This document shows positions 4,895 through 43,565 of a DNA stretch of 46,108 bases, piece by piece. The first letter of the stretch is position 1, and each line of letters begins with the position of its first letter. This DNA comes from a virus. Location of the stretch: the IMG/VR virus record IMGVR_UViG_3300032374_000005, positions 1-46,108 of that record, one strand, 5' to 3'. The notes below the pieces were generated by a model. The model saw nothing but the letters and a program-made list of their open reading frames with translations, was not told the DNA's origin and ran no database searches. The translations under genes were made by a program, and so were the position numbers.

Positions 4895-5695
4895 CTACCC
4901 GACCGCTTGGTCGAAAGCAGACGTGATGGTGACGGTGCCGCTGGTGACGCGCACCGCGAAGAACCAGCCGGCCGGCAGCGCGATCATGGCGGACTGGCCG
5001 GCGATGGTGGCGAGGGCGAGCCCGACAGAGAGGCCCCCCGTGTTGCTGTTCGCGTACTTGGCGATGGCCGTTCCGGTGGGGGCGCCAGAGGCGGGCGCCA
5101 CCGATGCGGCAGTGGGGCCGACCAGCACGTCCGCCGCGTGCGTCTGCCCGCCGGTAAGGGTCAGATTCGCGGTGGAGGTCAGGTTGATCGTGACCATGGC
5201 GGGCTTGGTCTTGTCGGTCGCCTGATAGGCGGTGCCGGGGGTCAACGTGCGCGCGATAGGGGCGGCGAAGGCGTTGACGCCGGCGGGGCCTTGCGGACCA
5301 GTCGCCCCTGCCGCGCCCTGAGGCCCAGCAGGACCAGCAGCGCCAGTTGCTCCGGTTGCACCGGCGGGGCCCGTCGCGCCTTGCAGGCCCGTGGCGCCCG
5401 TTGTGCCCGTGTCGCCCTTGGCGCCTGGCGCTCCAGCATCGCCTTTCGGGCCTTGAGGCCCTGCTGGTCCCGCATCGCCCTTCTCGCCTTTCAGCGTCGG
5501 GTCCTTGGACGGGTCCGTGACGATCTCGAACTCTAGGCCGCTGGTGTCCCGCGTCAGTCGCCCGCGCGTCAGCATTGCCACCATCGCACCCGCGCCGGTC
5601 GGCTCGACTGCATCAAAACGCGCCCGCATCCGGCCATTCTTCAGGTCGAAAAACGTCAGGTAGAGCCGCCGATAGCTGGAAAGCATGCCCGTCAT
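4895..5695 (-). CDS. Collagen-like repeat tail fibre protein
   Basis: Real start is ATG 5695 (ATGA overlap with the stop of 5692..7638), not the 711-aa track ORF. 266 aa. 23 consecutive G-X-Y triplets ([19 protein letters not shown]...GPQGPAG, ~5279-5488), then a beta-rich C-terminal domain. Confidence 0.85.
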
Positions 5696-7638
5696 GGGAT
5701 CGCGGTCCCCTTTCCACCGCCCCATCCCGGAGGCGGCGTTTCGTCGGTCGGCTCGGCGCCGTCGTCTAGCGTCGCCTGCCGGTCGATGTAGATATACCGG
5801 GACGACGCCATGAAGGTCGTAATCCCGCCGTCCGAGACGGGGAGGTACTGGCCGGTCGCGCGCTCGTAGAAGACATTGAACCACAGCCCGCTGCCGAGAC
5901 CGGTCAGCGTTCCGGCCGGCAGCGATACCGCCGTGCTGTCGTCCAACGTGCCGGTCATGGCGGCAATGGTGATGCTGCTTTCGTTGCTGGTCAGCGCATA
6001 ACGAGGCGTGCGCTCCAGGAAGCGGTACACGGCGCGCGAGGGCAGGTAATAGGGGTCCGTCACCGGCGCCTGCTGTTCGGCGACCGCGCCGTCCGAGAAA
6101 AGCGTGGGGGCGGCGTACACGTCCGCGGTCATCTCCCGCAGGGTCAGCGCAATCCGCCACTCCCTCCCCAGAGCGAAGCGCTCGACCCGGAAGGTGACAC
6201 TCTGGCCGCCGAAGCGCCGCGCGGAGGTCCAGACGCCCCAATCGCCTTCCTCGATCTCGGCGAAGCGAGGCCCCAGCACCACCGAAGCGGTCTTTTGGAG
6301 CCGCCCCTGTCGCCGGATGATCTCCGCGATACGCTGCGCCTGGGTGCCGCTGGTGACCAGCCGGAGCGATGGCGTGGCCTCCCGTGGCCCCTTGTCGGCG
6401 AGCACGTCGGCATTGACCCGCCGTACCGGGGCGCCGTGGTCCGCCCATTTCTGGGTCGGCTCGACGTACCGGGCGGCGACCGTGTTCACCCACTCCTTGT
6501 CCGCTTCTCCGCGGAATGGGGAATAGGCCACCTTGGTCCCCGTGACGATATCCGCGTCCGTGAAGAAAAAGGTCGGCGCTTTGGCCTGTCCCGGCTCGAC
6601 CGCGACGGTGCCTTCCGGCTGGATCACGATCCCGCCCATGGCCGCGGCGAAGAGATCGGCGACCGATCCGAAAGTTTCGTCCGCCGCGATCACGCCGCCC
6701 ACCCGATAGCGGCGCTCTGTCTGCCCGTTCAGCGCGGGGACGATCTCGTCGCACAGGTTTGCGGCGGCGAAGATCCGCTCCGGGGGCGCCTCGATCACGG
6801 AAAGGCCGCGGCCGATAAGAAGCTGCGTTGGATCGGTGACGCGATTGCAGGCGTAGATGCCGCGGTCGAAATTGTAGCGTAGAATCTCGGCGTTCTCCGT
6901 CCACTCCCAGGTGGAAGGATTGTCCCACCGGTGGGAGCCGGAACCCCCCGGCACGGTAGAATCCTTTCGGGGATCGTATGCCCGCAAGCCTTTGACGACG
7001 AACAGGAACTGCGGGCGCCCTGAGGTCCAAACCGGCGTCTTACTGTTCGGATCATCGGCCTTGTAGGCGACGACGACGTGGGCCACGCCGCGAAGGCGAT
7101 CGTTCGCGCTCCATCCGCCATAGGTGGTCATCACCGCGGGCGGCGACTGATTTTCGCTGCCGTTGCGCCAGTAGATCTCCAGCTGCCCGTTGTAACCCGA
7201 CACAGGCCCGTCGCCGGTGTACGCGACGTACTTGTCGTTCACATAAAATCCGACCAGCGCGTCACAGAGGTGATCGACAATATCGAGGTCCAACACTTCC
7301 CAGTCGGTGCCGTATTGGCCGCCGTAGTTGAAGGCATCCAGCAGGGTGCCAGCCGACGCAAACGTGCCGATCCCCACCTTCCGCGGCCCCTCTCCTAGCT
7401 GGACGCTCGTCTCTGCCGCCTGGCGCTGCTGATTGGTGCCTGCCTGCTGCCCGGCGAGGAGGAGCGAGTTGACCAGGGAGGCTGCTGCGATGACGGCGCC
7501 CACAGCGGCGAGGGTTGCCGTGGTGGCGCCACCGATGCCGGCGGCTACTGCCAGGCTCGTGCCGCCCGTGACCGGGATTGCCGCAATCGCGACGACCACG
7601 GAGGCGACGGCCAAGATTTTGCCGACCGTCTTGGACAT
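5692..7638 (-). CDS. Tail-tip / host-specificity protein (lambda J or GTA g15 position)
   Basis: 648 aa. Gly/Ala-rich hydrophobic N-terminus, then a large beta-rich body. Last large gene of the tail-tip module. Function assigned by position and general resemblance only. Confidence 0.7.
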
Positions 7639-17903: not shown

Positions 17904-19946
17904 TTATGCGCCCGGCTGCTTGTAGGCCGAACGCCAGTTGATCGCCCCGACATCGAACCAATGGCGGACCCGCCACTCGATGCCGTCCACGCTCCAGCCG
18001 TCGCGGCTGTCCACGCGGGGTTCGGTCTGCCCGTTGTAGAAGCTGACCATGATGGCCGGATTGCGCGCCGGGTCGGCAAAGGCATAGTAGGCGGTGCCGG
18101 TGAGTTCCGGCGTGCCGACGATGCGCTCGAACATCTTGCCGACCACGTTGGGCCGCTGGAGCTTGTTCGTCGCGTCGGGGTCGTACGGGCTGTCGTTGAG
18201 GACGCGCGCTCCGTCTTCCAGCTCAGTCGGCAGCAACAGCACGGACGGGCGGATCGCCAGAAACCGGTTGTTGCTGATATCCTTCTGGCGGGCCATCGCG
18301 ACGCGGATCGCGCTCCAGGCATTCACCGACCCCGCCGCGCCCGTGCCAGCCAAATTACCGTGAGCCGCAGAGAAGAAGGCGTTGCCGTCGCTAGTGTTCG
18401 GGTTGGCGGCAAGCAGCGCGAAGACGGCCTTCTCGACGGTGTACTTTGCCCCTTCACCGATGTCAGTGGCCAAGCTGGTGAAAGCGCCGAGGTCGTCGTT
18501 GATGATCGCCTCAATCGAAAGATTGAAGAGATTGGCGTACTTTTCGAGCTGCATCACCTCGCGGGCGCCATCCGGAAGCGGCTTGTACTTGATCTGCTCG
18601 GCTTCCTGATAAGCGTCGAGCGTGCCGACCGAGCCCTTCTGGTAGATGTAATTGGGCTTGAAGTCGCCCAGCGAGCCGGTCGCGCAGAAGGTTGGCCAGA
18701 CGACTTCGGCCACGTTGTACGCAGCCTGGACGGTGCGATGGGCCAGGTCTTCCAGCAAGACCGGAAAGTCGCTGGTGGTCTGGGTAATAGCCGAGCGGGC
18801 AGTAAGCGCCTGCGGTACGAACACCTCGCTCGCCATGGCCTTCGGCTTGATGCCAACGCGGTCCAGCGCATCGCGAGCGAGGTCGGCATTCTTCGCGCTG
18901 GCGAACTCGCCGGGATCAAGGTCGGCCTTCTCGCCTCGCGTCGCAGCGTCGCGCTCGAAAAGGGCGCGCAGGCCGGCGCGCTGGATGATCGAGTTGCGTG
19001 CGCCGATCATCCACTTGTCGCGGGCATCCTGGGTCACGCGCGCCGGGCTGGTGTGGCCGACATTGGCCGCGTCGCCCTGCTCGGCGAGCTTGTCGAGGAT
19101 CTTCTCGCGCGCCGCCGCCAGTTCGGTGCCATCGGCGATCAGGCCGTCGATGAACTCGCCGTCCAGCCGGTGCTTGGAGCCGAGCGCGCGAATACCGGAG
19201 ACGCGCTGGCGCTCGGCGGTGACCGCCTTGTCGGCGCGTGCCTGAACGTCAGCTTCGGTGATGGTGTCGGCGGACTGGTTGCCGGCCGCCGGCGGCGTGA
19301 CCACTTCGGTCATGCTGTTCTCCTGTCGAGATTGGGGAGCGGCCGGTGCCGTCCGCGGGGTGCGCGCCATCGCCACAGCGGTGATGAGCGGGCTATCGGG
19401 CGCCTTGCGGAACCCGAATGGCTTCACGTTCGACGCGGACACCGTCTGCGCGGCGTCGATCGAGGTGGCGAAATTCTGTTCGAGCGCTTCCGCGGCAGTC
19501 AGCCAGGTCTCGGCGTCAAGCATAGGGATAAGATCTTCGGCGGTAAGGCCGGTGCGGGTCGCATAGATGCCGACCAGCTGGTCGCGAATGCGATCAAGCT
19601 TGTCCGCCGCGCGCCGCAGCTCGTTCGCATCGCCGCAAGCGCAATCCCACGGATTGTGGATCATCATCAGGGCATTGTCCGCCATGAGGACTTCGTCGCC
19701 GGCCATCGCCAGCACCGACGCCATAGACGCGGCGAGCCCGTCGATGTGGCAGGTAACCTTGCGGCCCTTCTTCTTCTCGCGGACCACCGCGTTGAAGATT
19801 GCCAGCCCCTCCATGACGTAGCCGCCAGGCGAGTTGATGCGCAGGTCCAGGTCGTCGTCGCCCTCGGAGATCAACGGGACGAGCGTGTTGGCGTCGAGAC
19901 CGTCCCAGCTGTCGCCGACGATCCCGTAGATCAGGATTTCAGTCAT
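17904..19946 (-). CDS. Prohead protease (ClpP/S14-like) - scaffold-like linker - major capsid protein fusion
   Basis: 680 aa. N-terminal region: LRINSPGGYVMEGLAIFNAV, IDGLAASMASVLAMAGD, MMIHNPW. Helical linker at ~aa 200-300. The C-terminal ~380 aa are capsid-like. No separate capsid gene exists between the portal and decoration genes. Confidence 0.85.
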   Translation of the reverse strand: MTEILIYGIVGDSWDGLDANTLVPLISEGDDDLDLRINSPGGYVMEGLAIFNAVVREKKKGRKVTCHIDGLAASMASVLAMAGDEVLMADNALMMIHNPWDCACGDANELRRAADKLDRIRDQLVGIYATRTGLTAEDLIPMLDAETWLTAAEALEQNFATSIDAAQTVSASNVKPFGFRKAPDSPLITAVAMARTPRTAPAAPQSRQENSMTEVVTPPAAGNQSADTITEADVQARADKAVTAERQRVSGIRALGSKHRLDGEFIDGLIADGTELAAAREKILDKLAEQGDAANVGHTSPARVTQDARDKWMIGARNSIIQRAGLRALFERDAATRGEKADLDPGEFASAKNADLARDALDRVGIKPKAMASEVFVPQALTARSAITQTTSDFPVLLEDLAHRTVQAAYNVAEVVWPTFCATGSLGDFKPNYIYQKGSVGTLDAYQEAEQIKYKPLPDGAREVMQLEKYANLFNLSIEAIINDDLGAFTSLATDIGEGAKYTVEKAVFALLAANPNTSDGNAFFSAAHGNLAGTGAAGSVNAWSAIRVAMARQKDISNNRFLAIRPSVLLLPTELEDGARVLNDSPYDPDATNKLQRPNVVGKMFERIVGTPELTGTAYYAFADPARNPAIMVSFYNGQTEPRVDSRDGWSVDGIEWRVRHWFDVGAINWRSAYKQPGA

Positions 19947-29757: not shown

Positions 29758-29937
29758 CTATCTGGCACCTGTGCTGGTGTGAGAAACGATCCCGCCCTCC
29801 CCCTCTCGACCTTCATCCACCGCCTGCTGGCGGCGATCGCCCGCGCGGATGAAGGCGCCGGCGAGGATGCTGGCGGGGATGGACACCAGGAACCACGCGA
29901 GGGCCGCGGCGATGGCGAGGGCTTGGGCGGGGGTCAT
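29758..29937 (-). CDS. Small single-pass membrane protein (below track threshold)
   Basis: 59 aa, own translation: MTPAQALAIAAALAWFLVSIPASILAGAFIRAGDRRQQAVDEGREGEGGIVSHTSTGAR. ATGA overlap with the methyltransferase stop. Confidence 0.6.
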   Translation of the reverse strand: MTPAQALAIAAALAWFLVSIPASILAGAFIRAGDRRQQAVDEGREGEGGIVSHTSTGAR

Positions 29938-31193
29938 GCTGCGCGGTCCAGTGCGGAGGCGACAAAGTGATCCACCGCAGCGATCCGCTCACCGATCCAG
30001 CGCATCACCGGCACGGCCATGCTGTTCCCGAGCGCCTTGTAGCGCGGGCCGTCAGCCATCGGCTTCCCCCGGTGCGGGACCAGCGTGTAGTCGTCAGGAA
30101 ATCCTTGAAGGCGCTCGCACTCGCGCGGAGTCAGGCGGCGGACGGTGCTGCCGTACTGGACAGACGCATGTCCTCCGCCATTCGTGTGGCTGTCCTTGTG
30201 ACCCATGCTCCGCAGCGTCGACATGATCTCGCCAATGCCGAAGCCGTTTTGACCAGAGGCCTTGCAATCAAAAGCGAGGGGCTGGCAGACGGCACCAACA
30301 CCAAGCCCCCCGCGGCCGCCGTTTGGTGTCAGGATTGCATTGGCTGTGCCGTCGTTGCGCCATTCCAGGTTGGGTACGCCGTCCCGTCCACGCTCCATGA
30401 GAACGAACGTCTCACTCTCGAAGTCCTGACGGCCATGCGGGTCACCATGCGAGTTCAGCGCGGCGGCCACGTCAATCGGTCCGCGAGTGTCGTTCCCGCC
30501 GAAAGCCTGTGCTACGAGGTGCCCCGCTTGGGCCTGGTTATCGTCCGCGCCGCACGTACCAACGCCAGCCGAAGTGAGCGCGGCAACTGCCTTGAGCGCG
30601 CCCGCGCGCGGCGCAGGATGCCCCGACAGGCTGTGGCGCTCAGAAAGTACCGCTGCGGCACCTCTCCAATTTCCAGCACATCCGACAACGAACACGCGGC
30701 GGCGGCGCTGTGGAACTCCGAAGAACTGAGCGTCCAGAACTCGGTAGGCGAACCCATACCCGAGTTCCCCCAGCCCCCCGAGGATGGCTCCAAACGCCCG
30801 CCCTCCGTCGATCGACAGGACGCCGGGGACGTTCTCCCACACCACCCAGCGGGGCCGTGCGCGATCAGCAAGGCGGAGAAACTCAAGCGAGAGGTTGCCA
30901 CGGTCTCCATCCAGTCCCGCTCGGAGGCCGGCGACGGAGAAGTCTTGGCAGGGGGTACCTCCGACAAGAAGGTCAATTGGGCCATATTCGTCGCCCTTGA
31001 TCGTGGTGAAGTCGCCGTGCAGCGGCACATCGGGATAGTGGTGGGCGAGCACGGCGCGCGGCGCGGCTTCGATCTCGCTGTAGGCTGCGGCCTGCCAGCC
31101 GAGCGACTTCCACGCGACGGTGGACGCGCTGATCCCGGCGCATACGTCGAGGTAGCGCATAGCCGCGCCAATCCTCTCCACCCGCCCCGTCAC
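29934..31193 (-). CDS. DNA (cytosine-5)-methyltransferase, orphan
   Basis: 419 aa. Motifs: DVCAGIS (I), GGTPCQDFSVAG (IV), VVWENVPG (VI), QRRRRVFVVG (VIII), TPRECERLQGFPDDYT and GNSMAVPV (IX-X). No nuclease gene recognised next to it. Confidence 0.93.
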   Translation of the reverse strand: MTGRVERIGAAMRYLDVCAGISASTVAWKSLGWQAAAYSEIEAAPRAVLAHHYPDVPLHGDFTTIKGDEYGPIDLLVGGTPCQDFSVAGLRAGLDGDRGNLSLEFLRLADRARPRWVVWENVPGVLSIDGGRAFGAILGGLGELGYGFAYRVLDAQFFGVPQRRRRVFVVGCAGNWRGAAAVLSERHSLSGHPAPRAGALKAVAALTSAGVGTCGADDNQAQAGHLVAQAFGGNDTRGPIDVAAALNSHGDPHGRQDFESETFVLMERGRDGVPNLEWRNDGTANAILTPNGGRGGLGVGAVCQPLAFDCKASGQNGFGIGEIMSTLRSMGHKDSHTNGGGHASVQYGSTVRRLTPRECERLQGFPDDYTLVPHRGKPMADGPRYKALGNSMAVPVMRWIGERIAAVDHFVASALDRAA

Positions 31194-31651
31194 GCAGCGA
31201 TCTCCCGCGTGTCGGAGGTGGGGAGCGCAATCAGCGCCTCGACCCAGAAGAAGCCATCGTCACCCGGCCCGGCAATGCCGTGGTCGCTCGGGTGCGGGTC
31301 GAGCACCGCCCCATCTTCATCAACCACGACGATGTGGTTCCAGTCGCCGCGGGGGGACTTGCCCGCCAGCGTCGCCGGGCCGCGCACCCAGTCGCCCATG
31401 ACTTCCAGCGCGCGCTCAGTGGTCGGCACATCCAGCGCAAAGGAGACAAGCCCTAACCCGCGCGATGCGAGCCAATTCGTCATCGCCTTGCGCCAGTCGG
31501 CGCCGCACTCATTGGGATCGCAGAAGTGAGGCACTTCCCGCGGCTCCAACCCGGTCAGCATGGCGATGCACGTCCGCTGGCAATCACCGTAGATGCCTTC
31601 CTCCGGCTTGTGCCCGTTCAGCTGGCGGCGATGCTTCACCAGCCCGCTCAT
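31190..31651 (-). CDS. Hypothetical protein with papain-like Cys...His signature (tentative)
   Basis: 153 aa from ATG 31651 (ATGA overlap; track ORF starts at 31687). YGDCQRTCIAMLTG ... DWNHIVVVDEDG resembles C39-like peptidase cores. Fold assignment is unverified. Confidence 0.6.
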   Translation of the reverse strand: MSGLVKHRRQLNGHKPEEGIYGDCQRTCIAMLTGLEPREVPHFCDPNECGADWRKAMTNWLASRGLGLVSFALDVPTTERALEVMGDWVRGPATLAGKSPRGDWNHIVVVDEDGAVLDPHPSDHGIAGPGDDGFFWVEALIALPTSDTREIAA

Positions 31652-31881
31652 GCTGCGATCCCCGGTGCTTGGGTGGTGGGGCGCCACGGCTCGATCTGCT
31701 CCAACAACGCGATTTGCGCCTCAGTCAGCCCAGCGATGCTGGGGTGCCTCCATCCCGTGCTGCGAAAGATGTGGATTGCGAGAGAGCGGCGCGGCTCGCG
31801 GCCGTTCACGATCTCGTTGGCGTAGGAGCGGCTGATGCCTGCCTTGTCCGCCAACTCGGTGTATCCGGGGGCTGTCGTCAT
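31648..31881 (-). CDS. Cro-like HTH regulator, first gene of the leftward arm
   Basis: 77 aa from ATG 31881 (the track start at 31887 is a TTG): MTTAPGYTELADKAGISRSYANEIVNGREP... The operator palindrome abuts the start. Confidence 0.75.
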   Translation of the reverse strand: MTTAPGYTELADKAGISRSYANEIVNGREPRRSLAIHIFRSTGWRHPSIAGLTEAQIALLEQIEPWRPTTQAPGIAA

Positions 31882-31888
31882 TCCCAAA

Positions 31889-31907
31889 CATTCGCAGATT
31901 GCGAATG
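31889..31907. promoter_or_regulatory. Operator, perfect inverted repeat CATTCGCA-GAT-TGCGAATG
   Basis: 8-3-8 perfect palindrome in the divergent intergenic region, 8 nt from the leftward gene ATG. Confidence 0.7.
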
Positions 31908-31958: not shown

Positions 31959-31975
31959 ATTCGCATACTGCGGAC
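31959..31975. promoter_or_regulatory. Operator variant ATTCGCA-TAC-TGCGGAC
   Basis: Same half-site with one mismatch. Ends 1 nt before ATG 31976. An extra TTCGCA half-site lies at 31926-31931. Confidence 0.55.
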
Positions 31976-32311
31976 ATGGATGATGCAGACGACAAGAACG
32001 GCGGCCCGAACCACCTTCGCGCTTGGATGCTCTACCGCAAGGTGAAGGGTGCCGACCTCGCCAAGGCCCTCGGCGGCGCTGTCACGCCCGGCATGGTCAG
32101 CGACCTTGCCAACAGCAAGCGCGCTTTGTCTGCGAAGTGGCTGCGGCGGATCGCTCCCCACCTGAGTACGACGCCGGGGATGCTGCTTGATCACGATCCG
32201 CACGAGCTACCCGCCGATATCATCGACATTTGGGGCAGCGCCAGCGACGGACAGCGCCGCCAGCTGGTCGATGTGGCGCGCGCCCTGGTCCGCACCGGCA
32301 CCGAAGGATAA
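31976..32311 (+). CDS. HTH (XRE-like) regulator, repressor candidate
   Basis: 111 aa from ATG 31976 (track ORF 31835..32311 trimmed): MDDADDKNGGPNHLRAWMLYRKVKGADLAKALGGAVTPGMVSDLANSKRALSAKWL... Confidence 0.7.
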   Translation: MDDADDKNGGPNHLRAWMLYRKVKGADLAKALGGAVTPGMVSDLANSKRALSAKWLRRIAPHLSTTPGMLLDHDPHELPADIIDIWGSASDGQRRQLVDVARALVRTGTEG

Positions 32312-32382: not shown

Positions 32383-32401
32383 TATTCGCAAATCGCGAAT
32401 A
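32383..32401. promoter_or_regulatory. Operator TATTCGC-AAATC-GCGAATA
   Basis: Perfect 7-5-7 inverted repeat with the same ATTCGC core, upstream of the rightward early operon. Confidence 0.6.
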
Positions 32402-32418
32402 TTCTTGTTGACCTGACA

Positions 32419-32433
32419 TTCGCAATCTGCGAA
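32419..32433. promoter_or_regulatory. Operator TTCGCA-ATC-TGCGAA next to a TTGACC -35-like hexamer
   Basis: Perfect 6-3-6 inverted repeat. TTGACC at 32408-32413. About 50 nt upstream of ATG 32484. Confidence 0.6.
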
Positions 32434-32483
32434 CACCGTCCCCAACACCGCCGCTACCCCAGCGCGCGGCATGGAGGACGAAG

Positions 32484-33176
32484 ATGGCAAGCCTGCCCGA
32501 GACGGTCGAGCGGATAGAAATCCGCAATCGCTGGACCAATCGCGTCCAGATCACAGCAGAAATCACCTGCGCACCAGACGCGACGATCGGCGTCAAACTA
32601 GGGCTGGCGATCCGTTGGGCGCGACGCAACGATGCCGACCTGCGCGGTGCCGACCTGCGCGATGCCGACCTGCGCGATGCCGACCTGAGCGGTGCCGTCC
32701 TGCGCGGTGCCGACCTGCGCGATGCCGACCTGAGCGGTGCCGACCTGCGCGATGCCGACCTGAGCGGTGCCGACCTGAGCGGTGCCGTCCTGCGCGGTGC
32801 CGACCTGCGCGGTGCCGACCTGAGCGGTGCCGACCTGAGCGGTGCCGACCTGCGCGATGCCGACCTGAGCGGTGCCCCCGTCATCAAGGACATTCACCAG
32901 CGCGTCTATGCAGCCGCCTCGCAGCCGAGCGCTTTGGACATGGGCGATTGGCACATCTGCGATACGACTCACTGCCGGGCCGGCTGGGTGGTGCACCTTG
33001 CTGGGGATGCTGGATACGAGCTTGAGCAGCGTATCGGCACCTCCGCTGCCGCTTCGCTGATCTACCTTGCCAGCGATCCGACCATCGCACGCTTTCCCGA
33101 CTTCTACTGCGGCAATGAGGAGGCCCTCGCCGACATGAAGGCGATGGCCGAAGCTGAAAAGGCGAAGGCAGCATGA
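32484..33176 (+). CDS. Pentapeptide-repeat protein with Cys/His-containing C-terminal domain
   Basis: 230 aa. About 16 consecutive A(D/V)L(R/S)(G/D) pentapeptides ([25 protein letters not shown]...), then [22 protein letters not shown]... Confidence 0.9.
32631..32875 (+). repeat. 15-nt tandem repeat array (coding, pentapeptide units)
   Basis: Units g(a/g)tgccg(a/t)cctg(c/a)gc repeated about 16 times with only about 3 variable positions. In frame within 32484..33176. Confidence 0.9.
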
Positions 33177-33484
33177 CCGCCTCCAGCATGAGGGCCGGCG
33201 TCACCGCCGACCCGGATATCCTCGCCCAGTTCGCCGCCGAATGGCCGCACGACAGCTGGAGCATCGGACGCTATCGCAGCGGCACCCGCTGGCACGCACA
33301 GGTGCACGGGCACGGCGTCTGCCGGTTCGGCTCCGGCAACACGCCGCGCGAGGCGTTCGACGCAGCCGTTGCCGGCTTCCGCGCTGAGTACCCCGACGAG
33401 CTAACGGCCAAGCGCAAGCAGCTGGAGAAGGCCCGCGCCGATGCCGAGCGGCTGGAGCGCGAACTGGCGGAGGTGGCGGCATGA
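33173..33484 (+). CDS. Hypothetical early protein
   Basis: 103 aa. ATGA overlap with the upstream stop. C-terminal coiled-coil-like [22 protein letters not shown]. Confidence 0.7.
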
Positions 33485-34438: not shown

Positions 34439-34599
34439 TCCTCCCCTTCCCCACCCCCGCAGCCACGGTCGCGATCCCCCCGCGCGACGCGTCCCCCAAG
34501 CGCCCGGCCGACGTGGCACGGCCGGCGCCAACCCCTCGCGATGGGCAGCGTAGCTGGGCTGCGGTGGAGCGGTATCTGACGCCGGAGTGGATGCTGTGA
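34435..34599 (+). CDS. Small Pro-rich hypothetical protein (54 aa)
   Basis: ATGA overlap: MILPFPTPAATVAIPPRDASPKRPADVARPAPTPRDGQRSWAAVERYLTPEWML. Confidence 0.5.
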   Translation: MILPFPTPAATVAIPPRDASPKRPADVARPAPTPRDGQRSWAAVERYLTPEWML

Positions 34600-35096
34600 G
34601 GCGCGGAACGTCTCGCGCTAATATGGCGCGTAAGCCGCTGTCGGAACGCTTCGCAGCCAAAGTCACGCTCGCCGGGCCAGACGATTGTTGGCTGTGGACG
34701 GGAGCGGTGGACCCCAAAGGTTACGGCCGAATTGGCCGTGGCGGCAAGGCGGATGGCGTCGCCCTAGCTACGCACGTCGCGCTGGAATTAGCCGGCCGTC
34801 CTAGGCCGGGAAACCTGCACGCCCTTCACTCCTGCGACAACCCGACGTGCGTGAACCCGTCTCATCTTCGATGGGGCAGTAATGACGAGAACGTCGCTGA
34901 CATGGTCAGCCGTCATCGACAGTCGTGCAGGGCTTTGCGGGGTTCCGATAATCCAAAAGCTAAACTGAGCGAGGACGCCGTTCGCGAAATCAGGTCCTCA
35001 TCTCTGTCCGGCAAGGCCTTGGCGGCGGCTTACGGGATATCGGCAGCGGTCGTCAGCAAAGTGCGCCGGCGCGAAACTTGGAGGCATGTAGCATGA
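34596..35096 (+). CDS. HNH homing-type endonuclease
   Basis: DDCWLWTGAVDPKGYGRI ... ATHVALELAG ... HALHSCDNPTCVNPSHLRWGSNDEN, then a C-terminal HTH-like region. Start is either GTG 34596 (GTGA overlap) or ATG 34623. G+C visibly lower than in the neighbouring genes. Confidence 0.85.
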   Translation: MRRGTSRANMARKPLSERFAAKVTLAGPDDCWLWTGAVDPKGYGRIGRGGKADGVALATHVALELAGRPRPGNLHALHSCDNPTCVNPSHLRWGSNDENVADMVSRHRQSCRALRGSDNPKAKLSEDAVREIRSSSLSGKALAAAYGISAAVVSKVRRRETWRHVA

Positions 35097-36034
35097 CGAT
35101 CATTGCGGCCGCTGGCGCATACCCGGACATTCCGAATGAAGTGTATCACGGGCAAGAAATCTGCCCCGGTCCGTCTATCTCAAGTTCTGGTCTCAAGAAG
35201 CTGGTCGGCCACCTCGGCCTCCAGTCGAAGGGCTGCACCCCGCGCCACTATTGGGAGGGCTCGCCGCTCAACCCGTCGCGCAAGCCGCAGGAACAGACGG
35301 ACGCGCTGCGGCTCGGCTCGGCCTTCCATGACGCGCTGCTGCTGCCGGAGCGGTGGGCCGATCCTGACGCCTACCACTTTTTGCCTGAGGGCTTCGACCG
35401 GCGGCAGAGCAAGGTGCAGGCGGAGGCCATCGCCATGGCGGACGCTGCTGCCGCGGCCGGCTGCTGCCTGATCACCGCGCGGGAGCGTGTGGAGATCGAA
35501 GCACAGGTCGCCGCAATGCGCGCCAATCCGCTGGTCGACGCGGTGCTGTCCCACGGCGTGGCTGAGGTGACGCTGGCGTGGCAGGATGCCGAGACCGGCG
35601 TGTGGCTGCGCGCCCGACCCGACTGGCTGCTCGACAACCGGCGGTACGGGATCAACGTCAAGACCGCCTCCGACGCCTCGCACGGCGGCTTCCAGTCGGA
35701 CGTGACCAAGTACCGCTACTACCAGTCCGCCGCGCTCGAGCTGGACGGGATCGAGGCCGTGTTCGGCACCCGCCCGGGCAATTACCTCCACCCGGTCATC
35801 GAGAAGCCCGGCAAGGGCTGGCAGCCCGGAGACTATCTGCCCGTCGCCCTGTGGGAGCTGCCCGCCGAGGACATCGAGTACGGTCGCGCGCTCAACCGTC
35901 GCGCGATCCGGCTCTTTGCCGACTGCCTGAGTGCCGACCGCTGGCCGGGCTACGCAGATGCGCCCGCGCTGTGCGGCGTCAGCGGCTGGGCTCGCAAGCA
36001 GATCGACGACCTCATCGAGAAGGAAGCCGCATGA
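35093..36034 (+). CDS. PD-(D/E)XK exonuclease (RecE C-terminal / DUF3799-like)
   Basis: 313 aa from ATG 35093 (ATGA overlap). EVYHG...SISSSGLKKL...LRLGSAFHDALL...RARPDWLL...GINVKT...YYQSAA. Confidence 0.75.
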   Translation: MTIIAAAGAYPDIPNEVYHGQEICPGPSISSSGLKKLVGHLGLQSKGCTPRHYWEGSPLNPSRKPQEQTDALRLGSAFHDALLLPERWADPDAYHFLPEGFDRRQSKVQAEAIAMADAAAAAGCCLITARERVEIEAQVAAMRANPLVDAVLSHGVAEVTLAWQDAETGVWLRARPDWLLDNRRYGINVKTASDASHGGFQSDVTKYRYYQSAALELDGIEAVFGTRPGNYLHPVIEKPGKGWQPGDYLPVALWELPAEDIEYGRALNRRAIRLFADCLSADRWPGYADAPALCGVSGWARKQIDDLIEKEAA

Positions 36035-36251: not shown

Positions 36252-37247
36252 ATGGCCACGCAGCTCGCACCCGTAGATGATCAGCCCCGCCGCCTCGCCC
36301 CGCAAGCTGAAGTCCGTGACGACCTCGCCAAGATGGCGGACCAGCTCAAGATGGCGCTGCCGTCGCATATCTCAATCGAGAAGTTCCAGCGCGTCACCAT
36401 GACCGCGATCCAGACCGATCCCGATTTGCTCAAGGCAGATCGACGCTCTCTCTACGGCGCGATTACCCGCGCGGCTCAAGATGGGCTGCTGCCCGACAAG
36501 CGCGAAGGCGCGCTGGTGATCTTCACCAACAAGATCAAAGGTAAGGATGGCGAGCGGGACCAATACATCAAGGCCGTCCAGTGGATGCCGATGGTCGCTG
36601 GCATCCTCAAGAAGGTGCGCCAGTCCGGCGAGATCAGCGGGATTTCAGCGCACGTCGTCTACGAGGGCGATGACTTCGTGCACCGGCTGGGCGACGAGGA
36701 AAGCATCGAACACGCTCCGCCCCCGTTGGGCGCCGCGCGTGGGAAGCCGGTCGGGGCCTATGCTGTCGCCACCCTGCGGGACGGATTCAAGATCCGCGAG
36801 GTAATGGACATCGCGCAGATCGAGCGGGTGCGCGCCGTCAGCAAGACCGGGCAGTACGGGCCTTGGAAGGACTGGTGGGACGAGATGGCCCGCAAGACCG
36901 TCATCCGCCGCCTGTCGAAGCGCCTGCCTATGTCGACCGACATTGAGGCGGTGATCAACGACCCGTCGACCGATGCGGCGTTCGCGGAGGGTTCGGCGGC
37001 GGTTATGTCCGCGCCCCAGCCCCTCACCGCCGCGACCCTGCTCGGCCACGACCCTGACCCGATTGACCCCAACGCCCTCACCGGCGAGACCACCACCCTC
37101 GCTTCCGCGCTGGACGAGATCGACGCGGCCGAGCTGCTGGTCGACCTGGACGCGCGCGTCGCCGCCCTGCTGCCGTTGCTGTCCGACGAGGATGGCCAGG
37201 CGCTGCGTGACCGGGCCGATGAGCGCCGGCGGGAGATGGCAGCATGA
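36252..37247 (+). CDS. recT: RecT-family single-strand annealing protein
   Basis: 331 aa. LPSHISIEKFQRVTMTAIQTDPDLLKADRRSLYGAITRAAQDGLLPDKREGALV... is a typical RecT pattern. Confidence 0.88.
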   Translation: MATQLAPVDDQPRRLAPQAEVRDDLAKMADQLKMALPSHISIEKFQRVTMTAIQTDPDLLKADRRSLYGAITRAAQDGLLPDKREGALVIFTNKIKGKDGERDQYIKAVQWMPMVAGILKKVRQSGEISGISAHVVYEGDDFVHRLGDEESIEHAPPPLGAARGKPVGAYAVATLRDGFKIREVMDIAQIERVRAVSKTGQYGPWKDWWDEMARKTVIRRLSKRLPMSTDIEAVINDPSTDAAFAEGSAAVMSAPQPLTAATLLGHDPDPIDPNALTGETTTLASALDEIDAAELLVDLDARVAALLPLLSDEDGQALRDRADERRREMAA

Positions 37248-42303: not shown

Positions 42304-42538
42304 CGTAGCGCCCGACTGGCCCCGCATGATGAAGCGCGCCACGGCTGCTGCCTATTGCGACCTGTCCGCCGTCGAGTTCGAGCGGGAGGTCAGTGCCGGC
42401 CGCCTGCCGCAGCCGGTGCGCCTCGGAAATAGCGAGCACTGGAGCCGGGTCGCAATCGACGACATGCTTGAGCAGCTGTCCGGTGACGGCGCGCACGACT
42501 GGAGAAAGGGATCGCCGCTTTATGGCGCAGCCGCCTAA
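42296..42538 (+). CDS. xis: Excisionase / AlpA-like DNA-binding protein
   Basis: MMKRATAAAYCDLSAVEFEREVSAGRLPQPVRLGNSEHWSRVAIDDML is a typical small MerR/AlpA-type HTH. Lies directly upstream of int. Confidence 0.75.
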   Translation: MGSVAPDWPRMMKRATAAAYCDLSAVEFEREVSAGRLPQPVRLGNSEHWSRVAIDDMLEQLSGDGAHDWRKGSPLYGAAA

Positions 42539-43565
42539 GCGCTTCCCCTACATCAAGACCGTGCGAGCGCGGGGGCGCACGTACGAGTATTTCGACACCG
42601 GCACGATGCTGGCGGGGAAGAAGGTCTACAACCGCCTGCCGCCGCGGTCGGACAAGTCGTGGGGTCAGGTGTACGCCGGCATGGTCGCGGCCCGCCACGC
42701 GCGCCAGACAATCGTCTCGGTGCCGACTGTGGCCGAGATCAGTCGTGTCTATCAAGCAAGCGACCGTTTCAGGAAGCGCTCGGAATCGACGCAGGTGACC
42801 TACCTGATCTACCTGCGCCAGATCGAGACCCACCTCGGCATGGCGCCCGTCAGCGCGGTCGAGAAGCGCGACATCAAGGCGCTTATGGCGACCATGAAGG
42901 ATCGGCCGGGCGCGGCGAACATGACGCTGCTGGTTCTCCGCAATCTCTTCAAGTTGGCGATCGCGGAAGATCACATCGCCACCGATCCTTCCAAGGGCAT
43001 CGAGGAGCTGGAGGGCGAGGAAGCCGAGCACGAGCCCTGGCCCCTGCCCCTGCTTGAGGAAGCGCTGCAGGACCCCGAAGTGCGGCTGCCGGTCGCGCTG
43101 CTCTACTACACAGCCCAGCGGATCGGCGACGTGTGCAAGATGCGCTGGTCCGATATCCGCGACGGCTACCTGTTCGTGAAGCAGCAGAAGACCCGCAAGG
43201 AGCTTGATCTTCGGATCCACAGCGAGCTGGCGGCGATCTTGGCGCAGACGCCGCGCGAAGCCATGACGATCCTGTACGGCCCCAACCTCCGTCCGCGCCG
43301 CGCCGGCACCTTGCGCGACCACCTGCAGGCATGGGCGCGGAAGCGTGGCCAGCATGTCGTACCGCACGGGCTGCGGAAGAACGCCGTCATCGCGCTGCTG
43401 CAGATGGGCTGCAGCCTGGCCGAAACCTCGTCGATGTCGGGTCAGTCGCTTCGGATCGTGGAGCACTATGCCAAGCGCCGGAACAACCGGAAGCTGTCCA
43501 GTGCCGCCGTCCTGCGCTGGCAGGGAACAGATGGTGGCAATGGAAAACAGGAGAAAATCGGGTGA
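42522..43565 (+). CDS. int: Tyrosine integrase
   Basis: 347 aa from ATG 42522 (track ORF 42393..43565 trimmed). LLYYTAQRIGDVCKMRWSDI (Arg), HGLRKNAV (H-x-x-R), SLRIVEHYAK (Tyr). Confidence 0.9.
   Translation: MAQPPKRFPYIKTVRARGRTYEYFDTGTMLAGKKVYNRLPPRSDKSWGQVYAGMVAARHARQTIVSVPTVAEISRVYQASDRFRKRSESTQVTYLIYLRQIETHLGMAPVSAVEKRDIKALMATMKDRPGAANMTLLVLRNLFKLAIAEDHIATDPSKGIEELEGEEAEHEPWPLPLLEEALQDPEVRLPVALLYYTAQRIGDVCKMRWSDIRDGYLFVKQQKTRKELDLRIHSELAAILAQTPREAMTILYGPNLRPRRAGTLRDHLQAWARKRGQHVVPHGLRKNAVIALLQMGCSLAETSSMSGQSLRIVEHYAKRRNNRKLSSAAVLRWQGTDGGNGKQEKIG

Follow-up and report, generated by a model that had tools for sequence, protein, structure and literature searches.

What is a phage gene for when much of it is a run of near-identical 15-nt units? 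We asked this of the pentapeptide-array gene at 32484-33176 (+) of the virus record IMGVR_UViG_3300032374_000005 (IMG/VR). The 46,108 nucleotides of DNA analysed, positions 1 to 46,108 of that record, are called the window throughout. The evidence points to an early host-interference protein in which a constant His/Cys module is joined to a quickly re-tunable solenoid surface, a reading to which we give a probability of about one half. The gene product matches the family phrog_31265, whose members carry the database names 'putative pentapeptide repeat protein' or 'hypothetical protein' with no function assigned there, and both the pentapeptide fold and the slippage-prone nature of such repeats are already known. 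Our literature searches found no study of the array-gene family. They also found no description of an orphan His/Cys domain as its defining module or of the fusion of that domain to unrelated scaffolds, and none of family-wide concerted evolution at exposed residues only or of a 15-nt unit conserved between phages.

The pentapeptide array and its DNA units

The open reading frame (ORF) runs without interruption from ATG 32484 to TGA 33176 on the plus strand, with GGAGGA at 32473-32478, 5 nt 5' of the start codon. It encodes a three-part protein of 230 amino acids (aa), composed of an N-terminal cap (aa 1-50, 32484-32633), a pentapeptide array (aa 51-130, 32634-32873) and a C-terminal domain (aa 131-230, 32874-33173). 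The protein belongs to the pentapeptide repeat family PF00805, which it matches with 109.7 bits against a Pfam cut-off of 20.2 (E 4.4e-32). The match to phrog_31265 (E 1.4e-67) extends from aa 43 to 230, against positions 61-252 of the 264 in the profile, and covers both the array and the C-terminal domain. The initial annotation of this locus, made from the sequence alone, counted about 16 pentapeptides of the form A(D/V)L(R/S)(G/D), and 16 in-register units of 15 nt are indeed present. Their order is abbcdbcbccdaccbc, with exact internal repeats of up to 46 nt, and a degenerate 17th unit, APVIK, follows them. Tandem Repeats Finder reported a period of 15 with 16.3 copies at 32633-32876 (90% matches, score 390) and also a higher-order period of 45 nt (93%).

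Only four nucleotide forms occur among the 16 units. GCCGACCTGAGCGGT is found seven times, GCCGACCTGCGCGAT five times, and GCCGACCTGCGCGGT and GCCGTCCTGCGCGGT twice each. Columns 5, 10 and 14 of the 15 are the sole variable sites, with bases A/T, C/A and G/A, respectively, and the differences are 100% non-synonymous (D/V, R/S and G/D); the number of synonymous differences is zero. Given the codon usage of 12 confident window genes, codon uniformity of this degree has a probability of about 10^-22.5, and the earlier statement that the units are almost identical even at synonymous positions is thus borne out. GGT accounts for 11% of the Gly codons in those 12 genes vs. 11 of 11 in the array. A two-unit pattern matched 15 times in the window, always within the array, and shuffled sequences gave an expectation of 0.00. 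We considered whether the GGT codon avoids GGCGCC at the unit junctions. This idea was rejected, as GGCGCC is found 54 times in the window compared to 57.7 expected.

Variation limited to a few non-synonymous nucleotide positions could also be produced by programmed diversification of the type found with diversity-generating retroelements. However, no second (template) copy of the repeat is present in the 46 kb, and the variable bases (A/T, C/A, G/A) are not adenine-specific. On these two grounds the explanation was rejected, and we give it practically no chance. In addition, family-library scans of about 25 main window ORFs, not of all ORFs, returned no reverse transcriptase match.

Predicted structure of the protein

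An AlphaFold2 (AF2) model of the full protein, built with 59 homologues, has a mean predicted local distance difference test score (pLDDT) of 88.3, with values of 80-89 over the array. The cap is modelled as a beta-hairpin at residues 7-29 and a helix at residues 35-48, and it is kept in relatives such as P0003 and P0049. From residue 56 to 127 the model has one strand per five residues, and residues 137-229 contain five helices. When this model was compared with the PDB by Foldseek, only pentapeptide proteins were returned (Np275, alr5209, synthetic solenoids, MfpA, QnrB1 and AlbG), and the matches to the helix had a root-mean-square deviation (rmsd) of 0.4-0.9 A over 60-77 columns. As the initial annotation had proposed, the array is predicted to form a right-handed quadrilateral pentapeptide beta-helix. 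With four units per coil, the 16-17 units would make about four coils.

According to review text on this fold, residues 1 and 3 of each pentapeptide face the interior of the helix. In the window array these residues, Ala and Leu, never vary. Because the inward residues are the invariant ones, the variation is predicted to be confined to the exposed face. The net charge of the array is -10 over 80 residues, a figure taken from the sequence and not from surface electrostatics.

The C-terminal His/Cys domain as the constant element

A C-terminal domain containing Cys and His had been noted in the initial annotation, and the motif is present at aa 156-168 (32949-32987, +), where H157, C159, H163 and C164 are followed by R-A-G-W. 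Modelled alone by AF2, the domain is all-helical with a pLDDT of 93 and a predicted TM score of 0.86, and the pLDDT dips over the His/Cys loop. Because four possible ligands lie within eight residues and the pLDDT dips over that very loop, the domain probably binds metal. The invariant columns are M153, W156, C159, H163, C164, R165, A166, G167, W168, L172, G177, I193, Y194 and S197. H157, T161 and T162 are near-invariant, and the Cys of 'FYC' is not conserved.

A word-indexed search with aa 131-230 alone found 260 homologous proteins. Among those whose sequence was read, most have 155-172 residues with the same cap and only 2-6 pentapeptides; others are stand-alone domains of 76-125 residues, and Cys-rich repeats are present in some. 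When 1.84 billion cluster representatives were searched with a profile, 1,947 clusters (at 50% identity) matched at E<=1e-3 and 1,370 at E<=1e-10. Sixty-six of the best 147 clusters have at least three pentapeptides, 35 are stand-alone domains and 46 have other N-terminal parts. The latter are mostly (Cys-x-x)n arrays that follow a conserved 'NGNRCSxEYFGS' head, with a few parts resembling leucine-rich repeats (LRR) or DUF4116. In nearly all of these 147 clusters the domain sits at or near the C-terminus of the protein, and in none of them does a Pfam family lie over it.

NCBIfam and PADLOC likewise gave zero matches for the domain. A profile search of the PDB yielded a best E of 0.06, which was spurious, and Foldseek found no match in the PDB for the domain model (best E 3.5). 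The single Foldseek match in BFVD is a 74-residue entry with 54% sequence identity (E 4e-3), which we take to be a family member. The fold is thus confidently predicted by the model and unmatched in the libraries searched. The family is defined by its C-terminal domain and not by the repeats, and this domain occurs either alone or behind interchangeable scaffolds of pentapeptide, (Cys-x-x)n, LRR-like or DUF4116 type.

We also observed a sister architecture at positions 5001-5801 of locus L174 (chromosome CP046444.1) and in P0133, P0185 and P0245, among others. It consists of a conserved 'DxNGNRCSxEYFGSxEAAxxAL' head, up to about 30 Cys-x-x triplets with a 9-nt period and uniform codons, and the same C-terminal domain. 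No Pfam family matched either the head or the Cys array.

Turnover of the array across the family

At least 456 relatives with the full architecture are present in IMG/VR; 78 loci were analysed, with 74 distinct viral arrays. These arrays contain 8-43 units with a median of 20, and the range for the family overall is 2-43. The same-codon fraction is 1.0 in most viral arrays compared to 0.54 in a diverged control array. Between phages the codon choice differs (GCC, GCT, GCG or GCA for Ala; CTG, CTC, TTG or CTT for Leu; GGT, GGC or GGG for Gly), yet it is uniform within each phage. We read this combination as the signature of concerted evolution. In a complete-chromosome prophage the Cys-rich array with its 9-nt period uses TGC for 33 of 34 Cys codons and has the same single-base AGC/CGC alternation. 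The net charge is negative in 85% of the 74 viral arrays and positive in 14%.

Length changes can be seen between closely similar phages. Over 3,486 nt around the gene, not one mismatch separates Ralstonia phages BHDT_So9 and DLDT_So2, and the sole difference there is a 45-nt (three-unit) indel in the array; the two genomes, with lengths of 41,296 and 41,341, also differ by 45. Salmonella phages L and ST64T are >99.9% identical, and a 15-bp deletion of one pentapeptide in orf232 of the early left operon is one of the two differences between them (10.1101/2020.10.05.325894). The arrays would be minisatellites within coding sequence, with slippage or unequal recombination as the means of turnover. 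The initial annotation had postulated recent expansion and length variation, and had set against them an invariant repeat number with diverged repeats in homologues. Across the family the latter is clearly not what was found; unit numbers of 8-43, uniform codons and the 45-nt and 15-bp indels strongly support homogeneity at the nucleotide level, turnover and length variation.

Each of the 'complete' linear records of the Ralstonia phages Adzire, Elie and Simangalove (Bakolyvirus; L166, L167 and L169) has its start or its end within the array, and their annotation of the gene is limited to the C-terminal 85 aa. The array probably broke or misplaced the ends of these assemblies. A scan of genome contigs with the full protein returned an excess of generic pentapeptide proteins and was hardly informative.

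Turnover of this type may be neutral. The array would then be a tolerated, slippage-prone linker of drifting length, and all function would reside in the C-terminal domain. This fits with the frequent stand-alone C-terminal domains (35 of 147 clusters) and the wide range of copy number, and exact repeats as long as those in the window array make slippage unavoidable. However, arrays of up to 43 units are kept in frame in hundreds of phages, the N-terminal cap is conserved, and the inward Ala and Leu remain invariant while only exposed positions vary. Moreover, at least four unrelated repeat scaffolds are fused to the same domain, which suggests that having a scaffold is selected for. We consider a purely neutral linker distinctly unlikely, and return to a host-interference protein whose solenoid surface can be re-tuned.

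A 15-nt unit shared between phages

In about 45 of 80 loci the unit consensus agrees with that of the window at every one of the five third-codon positions, including the GGT that is rare in the window's genes. In many of these approximately 45 loci, 40-88% of the units are exact 15-nt copies of the window unit types. A comparison of L081-L160 with window positions 32634-32873 gives GCC-GAC-CTG-CGC-GGT and its single-base variants as the shared unit. The units fall into two main lineages, GCC...GGT (40 arrays) and GCG...GGC (16 arrays). Where residues of the flanking cap and C-terminal domain are identical, they have the same codon only 30-55% of the time. Furthermore, the identities of the cap and of the C-terminal domain are uncorrelated across pairs (Spearman -0.08 and 0.05), whereas the halves within each module do correlate (0.72 and 0.46).

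The shared unit and the uncoupled histories of cap and C-terminal domain fit recombination between phages inside the arrays. Because the 15-nt unit is shared despite synonymously saturated flanks, and because the two flanking modules have separate histories, these results suggest that the arrays may also be hotspots for such recombination. A caveat is that short-read assemblers can join different phages across identical repeats, and three Bakolyvirus records, as mentioned above, start or end in the array.

Immunity region and operon context

A 17-bp palindrome, ATTCGCAnnnTGCGAAT, has exactly four sites in the 46 kb, at 31890, 31959, 32384 and 32418, compared to 0.15 expected. Two sites are OR-like. 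The first, ATTCGCAGATTGCGAAT, occupies 31890-31906, and the second, at 31959-31975, has two mismatches and abuts the ATG of a regulator gene. The other two are OL-like, at 32384-32400, just 5' of TTGACC, and at 32418-32434. TTGACC (32408-32413), a -35-like hexamer read from the sequence, is the sole promoter candidate before the array gene, and we infer a promoter there; the last palindrome overlaps the spacer and the -10 region of this putative promoter. The palindrome at 32384-32400 is followed by TTCTTGTT, and 32383-32401 scores as a terminator-like hairpin, which could also end the regulator transcript. The 22 nt at the regulator start (31975-31996, CATGGATGATGCAGACGACAAG) and at the array-gene start (32470-32491, CATGGAGGACGAAGATGGCAAG) are 77% alike, which suggests that an operator-and-leader module was duplicated.

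The helix-turn-helix (HTH) regulator, which takes the cI position, lies at 31976-32311 (+) with operator pairs on both sides. It has 111 aa from ATG 31976 in an ORF that is open from 31835, and it matches phrog_7241 (E 1e-6) and, weakly, the Pfam families HTH_31 and HTH_3 (E 0.05). A Cro-like HTH protein of 77-79 aa (31648-31887, -; Pfam HTH_3, E 4.4e-5, 23.9 bits vs. a cut-off of 23) heads the leftward operon. The genes after it encode a C5 methyltransferase, a replication initiator, a primase/helicase, terminase, portal, protease-capsid, tape measure and tail fibre proteins. Rightward from the second operator pair, the array gene is followed by small ORFs and by genes for an HNH endonuclease, a RecE-like exonuclease, RecT, a deoxynucleoside monophosphate phosphatase and an integrase (42393-43565). 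As judged by gene order, this is a lambda-type layout with the cI position between OR and OL, and the array gene is promoter-proximal in the pL-equivalent recombination/integrase arm. The initial annotation described it as the first rightward early gene under the operators. It does appear to be the first gene of its own operator-controlled unit; however, the regulator gene lies upstream of it on the same strand.

The ATG of a downstream 103-aa ORF (33173-33484, +) overlaps the TGA of the array gene as ATGA, an arrangement that indicates putative co-transcription and translational coupling. This ORF has no Pfam or PHROG family match.

The gene has a comparable location in several other phages. 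In the prophages L172 and L174 it is found in the same arm, 3' of an S24-type CI repressor. It is the first gene divergent from cI in Ralstonia phage RpY1 and gene 1 in Bakoly; in RsoP1IDN, a member of the Autographiviridae, it is gene 4 and precedes the primase. Cro/CI-type HTH (HTH_3) proteins are the commonest upstream neighbours, with 12 of 110 candidate upstream ORFs at 55 loci. Beyond these HTH neighbours, the viral loci share almost no gene order with the window, and the gene therefore seems to behave as a mobile cassette. Among cultured phages, none is similar to the surrounding 4 kb outside the repeat itself, and a look-up of the exact window protein sequence gave no match.

The location raises the question of whether the protein acts in lysogeny control or exclusion, as an antirepressor or in superinfection exclusion, in connection with the adjacent immunity region. 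The gene is directly 3' of the cI-position regulator, and likewise in L172, L174 and RpY1, and HTH regulators are its most frequent upstream neighbours. On the other hand, the gene is also found in the early region of strictly lytic-type Autographiviridae, and the upstream operator pair implies repression in the lysogen. We regard such a role as quite improbable, and continue to prefer interference with the host.

Several observations were made on the rest of the window. The lytic operon opens, immediately after the Cro-like gene, with 29934-31687 (-), which encodes a C5 cytosine DNA methyltransferase and a protein of 165 aa from phrog_5845; the phage could use the methyltransferase to protect itself. 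In the recombination module (34587-36034, +), the first 19 nt of the RecE-like exonuclease gene lie within the HNH endonuclease ORF, and RecT follows at 36252. We recognised no nuclease inhibitor of the Gam or Abc type in this HNH/RecE-like/RecT module. A 680-aa ORF at 17904-19946 (-) matches both a head maturation protease and a major head protein (phrog_133 and phrog_4523) and looks like a fusion of protease and capsid. A 477-aa ORF at the window's left end (506-1939, +) has no PHROG match. Rfam has no match in the window.

Comparison with DNA mimics and other known systems

The initial annotation considered DNA mimicry against gyrase, restriction or other DNA-binding defences plausible. If mimicry of the Qnr/MfpA type were the core mechanism, the acidic helix would imitate B-DNA and titrate gyrase, a restriction enzyme or RecBCD/AddAB, and the C-terminal domain would only dimerise the rod. 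Qnr, MfpA, AlbG and McbG share with the window protein the right-handed quadrilateral beta-helix, as predicted for the latter, and possibly an acidic surface. Foldseek matched the helix to MfpA with an rmsd of 0.4-0.5 over 60 columns, and the charge of -10 over the array agrees with mimicry. The gene also appears to belong to an early operon beside RecE/RecT, where lambda has Gam and P22-like phages have Ral and Abc. In addition, pentapeptide repeat proteins of the Qnr/MfpA type dimerise via C-terminal helices, according to review text.

However, the protein scored far under all NCBIfam cut-offs for these families (52.3 vs. 360 for MfpA, 35.7 vs. 240 for Qnr and 46.5 vs. 460 for QnrB). Proteins of the Qnr/MfpA architecture have about 8-10 coils that end in a dimerising C-terminal helix, with no further domain. 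The window protein does not have this long-helix architecture; its 16-17 units give only about four coils per monomer and are followed by a five-helix domain of 100 aa. The window protein further differs from Qnr in that it is without the Qnr loops, has repeats homogenised at the nucleotide level and is encoded by a phage early gene. In relatives the pentapeptides number two or are absent, or LRR or Cys-rich arrays take their place, and 14% of the arrays carry a net positive charge. An invariant His/Cys motif and stand-alone C-terminal domains exceed the needs of a dimerisation helix. In a published test, overexpressed McbG and QnrB did not inhibit BREX. Mimicry as the core mechanism thus failed on cut-offs, helix length, the loss or replacement of the array in relatives and the positively charged arrays, and we now think it unlikely. 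It is possible that DNA mimicry is one mode of action of the window protein, but not a family-wide feature.

The DNA mimics T7 Ocr, T7 gp5.9, lambda Gam and ArdA are acidic, elongated proteins of early operons, which in lambda adjoin recombination genes. Neither the helix nor the C-terminal domain has sequence similarity to Ocr, ArdA, Gam or gp5.9, or fold similarity to them by Foldseek against the PDB.

The phrog_31265 members of Ralstonia phages RSK1, RsoP1IDN (gp4), RpY1 (RpY1_018), BHDT_So9 and Bakoly (gene 1) have the same cap, array and HCRAGW domain as the window protein. They are encoded in early regions, and their C-terminal domains are 63-67% identical to that of the window protein. 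They differ in having Betaproteobacteria as hosts, in the types of phage, which include lytic Autographiviridae, and in unit number (13 to about 45), and some of their arrays are less homogenised. None of them has been characterised.

Orf-232 of the P22-like Salmonella phages ST64T and L also contains homogenised ADLRG units. Its gene lies in the pL operon between ral and gene 17, and in ST64T this operon carries kil, erf and anti-RecBCD genes as well. The N- and C-terminal parts of Orf-232 are, however, unrelated to those of the window protein. A shared origin was rejected for the C-terminal part, with an hhalign probability of 0.15%.

A variable solenoid that serves for recognition, N-terminal to a constant Cys module, is also seen in the bacterial effectors NleL/SopA (pentapeptide-like beta-helix and HECT-like domain) and in IpaH/SlrP (LRR and NEL), as an analogy only. 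NleL is among the Foldseek matches of the window protein through its helix. The window C-terminal domain has no fold similarity to HECT or NEL, and it is only about 95 aa long.

Proposed function

We propose an accessory protein that is produced early in infection and interferes with the host, in anti-defence or in takeover. The constant His/Cys domain would supply a conserved activity or docking, and the mostly acidic solenoid would serve for binding or as a decoy, with a surface able to alter its length and face quickly. The gene family is widespread in phages, and its make-up looks suited to an arms race against the host.

Several points weigh against this proposal. The family has no characterised homologue, and PADLOC, Pfam, NCBIfam and the PDB are all empty for the C-terminal domain. 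The stand-alone C-terminal domains mean that at least one function does not need the array, and the positively charged arrays (14%) mean that an acidic surface is not universal. A role in lysogeny or exclusion would also fit the site next to the immunity region. That the array gene is expressed early and under a repressor is inferred from its position and operators only, and a strict sigma-70 consensus scan found no promoter. Finally, copy numbers from short-read metagenome assemblies may be wrong.

Implications

Phage pentapeptide proteins are common and are usually labelled 'Qnr-like' or 'hypothetical', and such a label can suggest resistance or gyrase mimicry without evidence. In the present family the conserved unit is a different one, the His/Cys domain with at least 1,900 clusters, and the repeats are a fast-evolving accessory that can be replaced by other solenoids. 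The arrays break or distort short-read assemblies of phages, and in some cases they are the whole difference between otherwise identical isolates. A broader idea, which we offer only tentatively and hold to be far from probable, is that these proteins form an unrecognised class of phage early proteins. In such a class, a constant His/Cys effector or docking domain of new fold would be retargeted by interchangeable, hyper-recombinogenic solenoids (pentapeptide, Cys-x-x and LRR). If the arrays are also hotspots of recombination between phages, they would be a common pool of binding surfaces, reshuffled at a rapid rate and directed against the defence proteins of the host.

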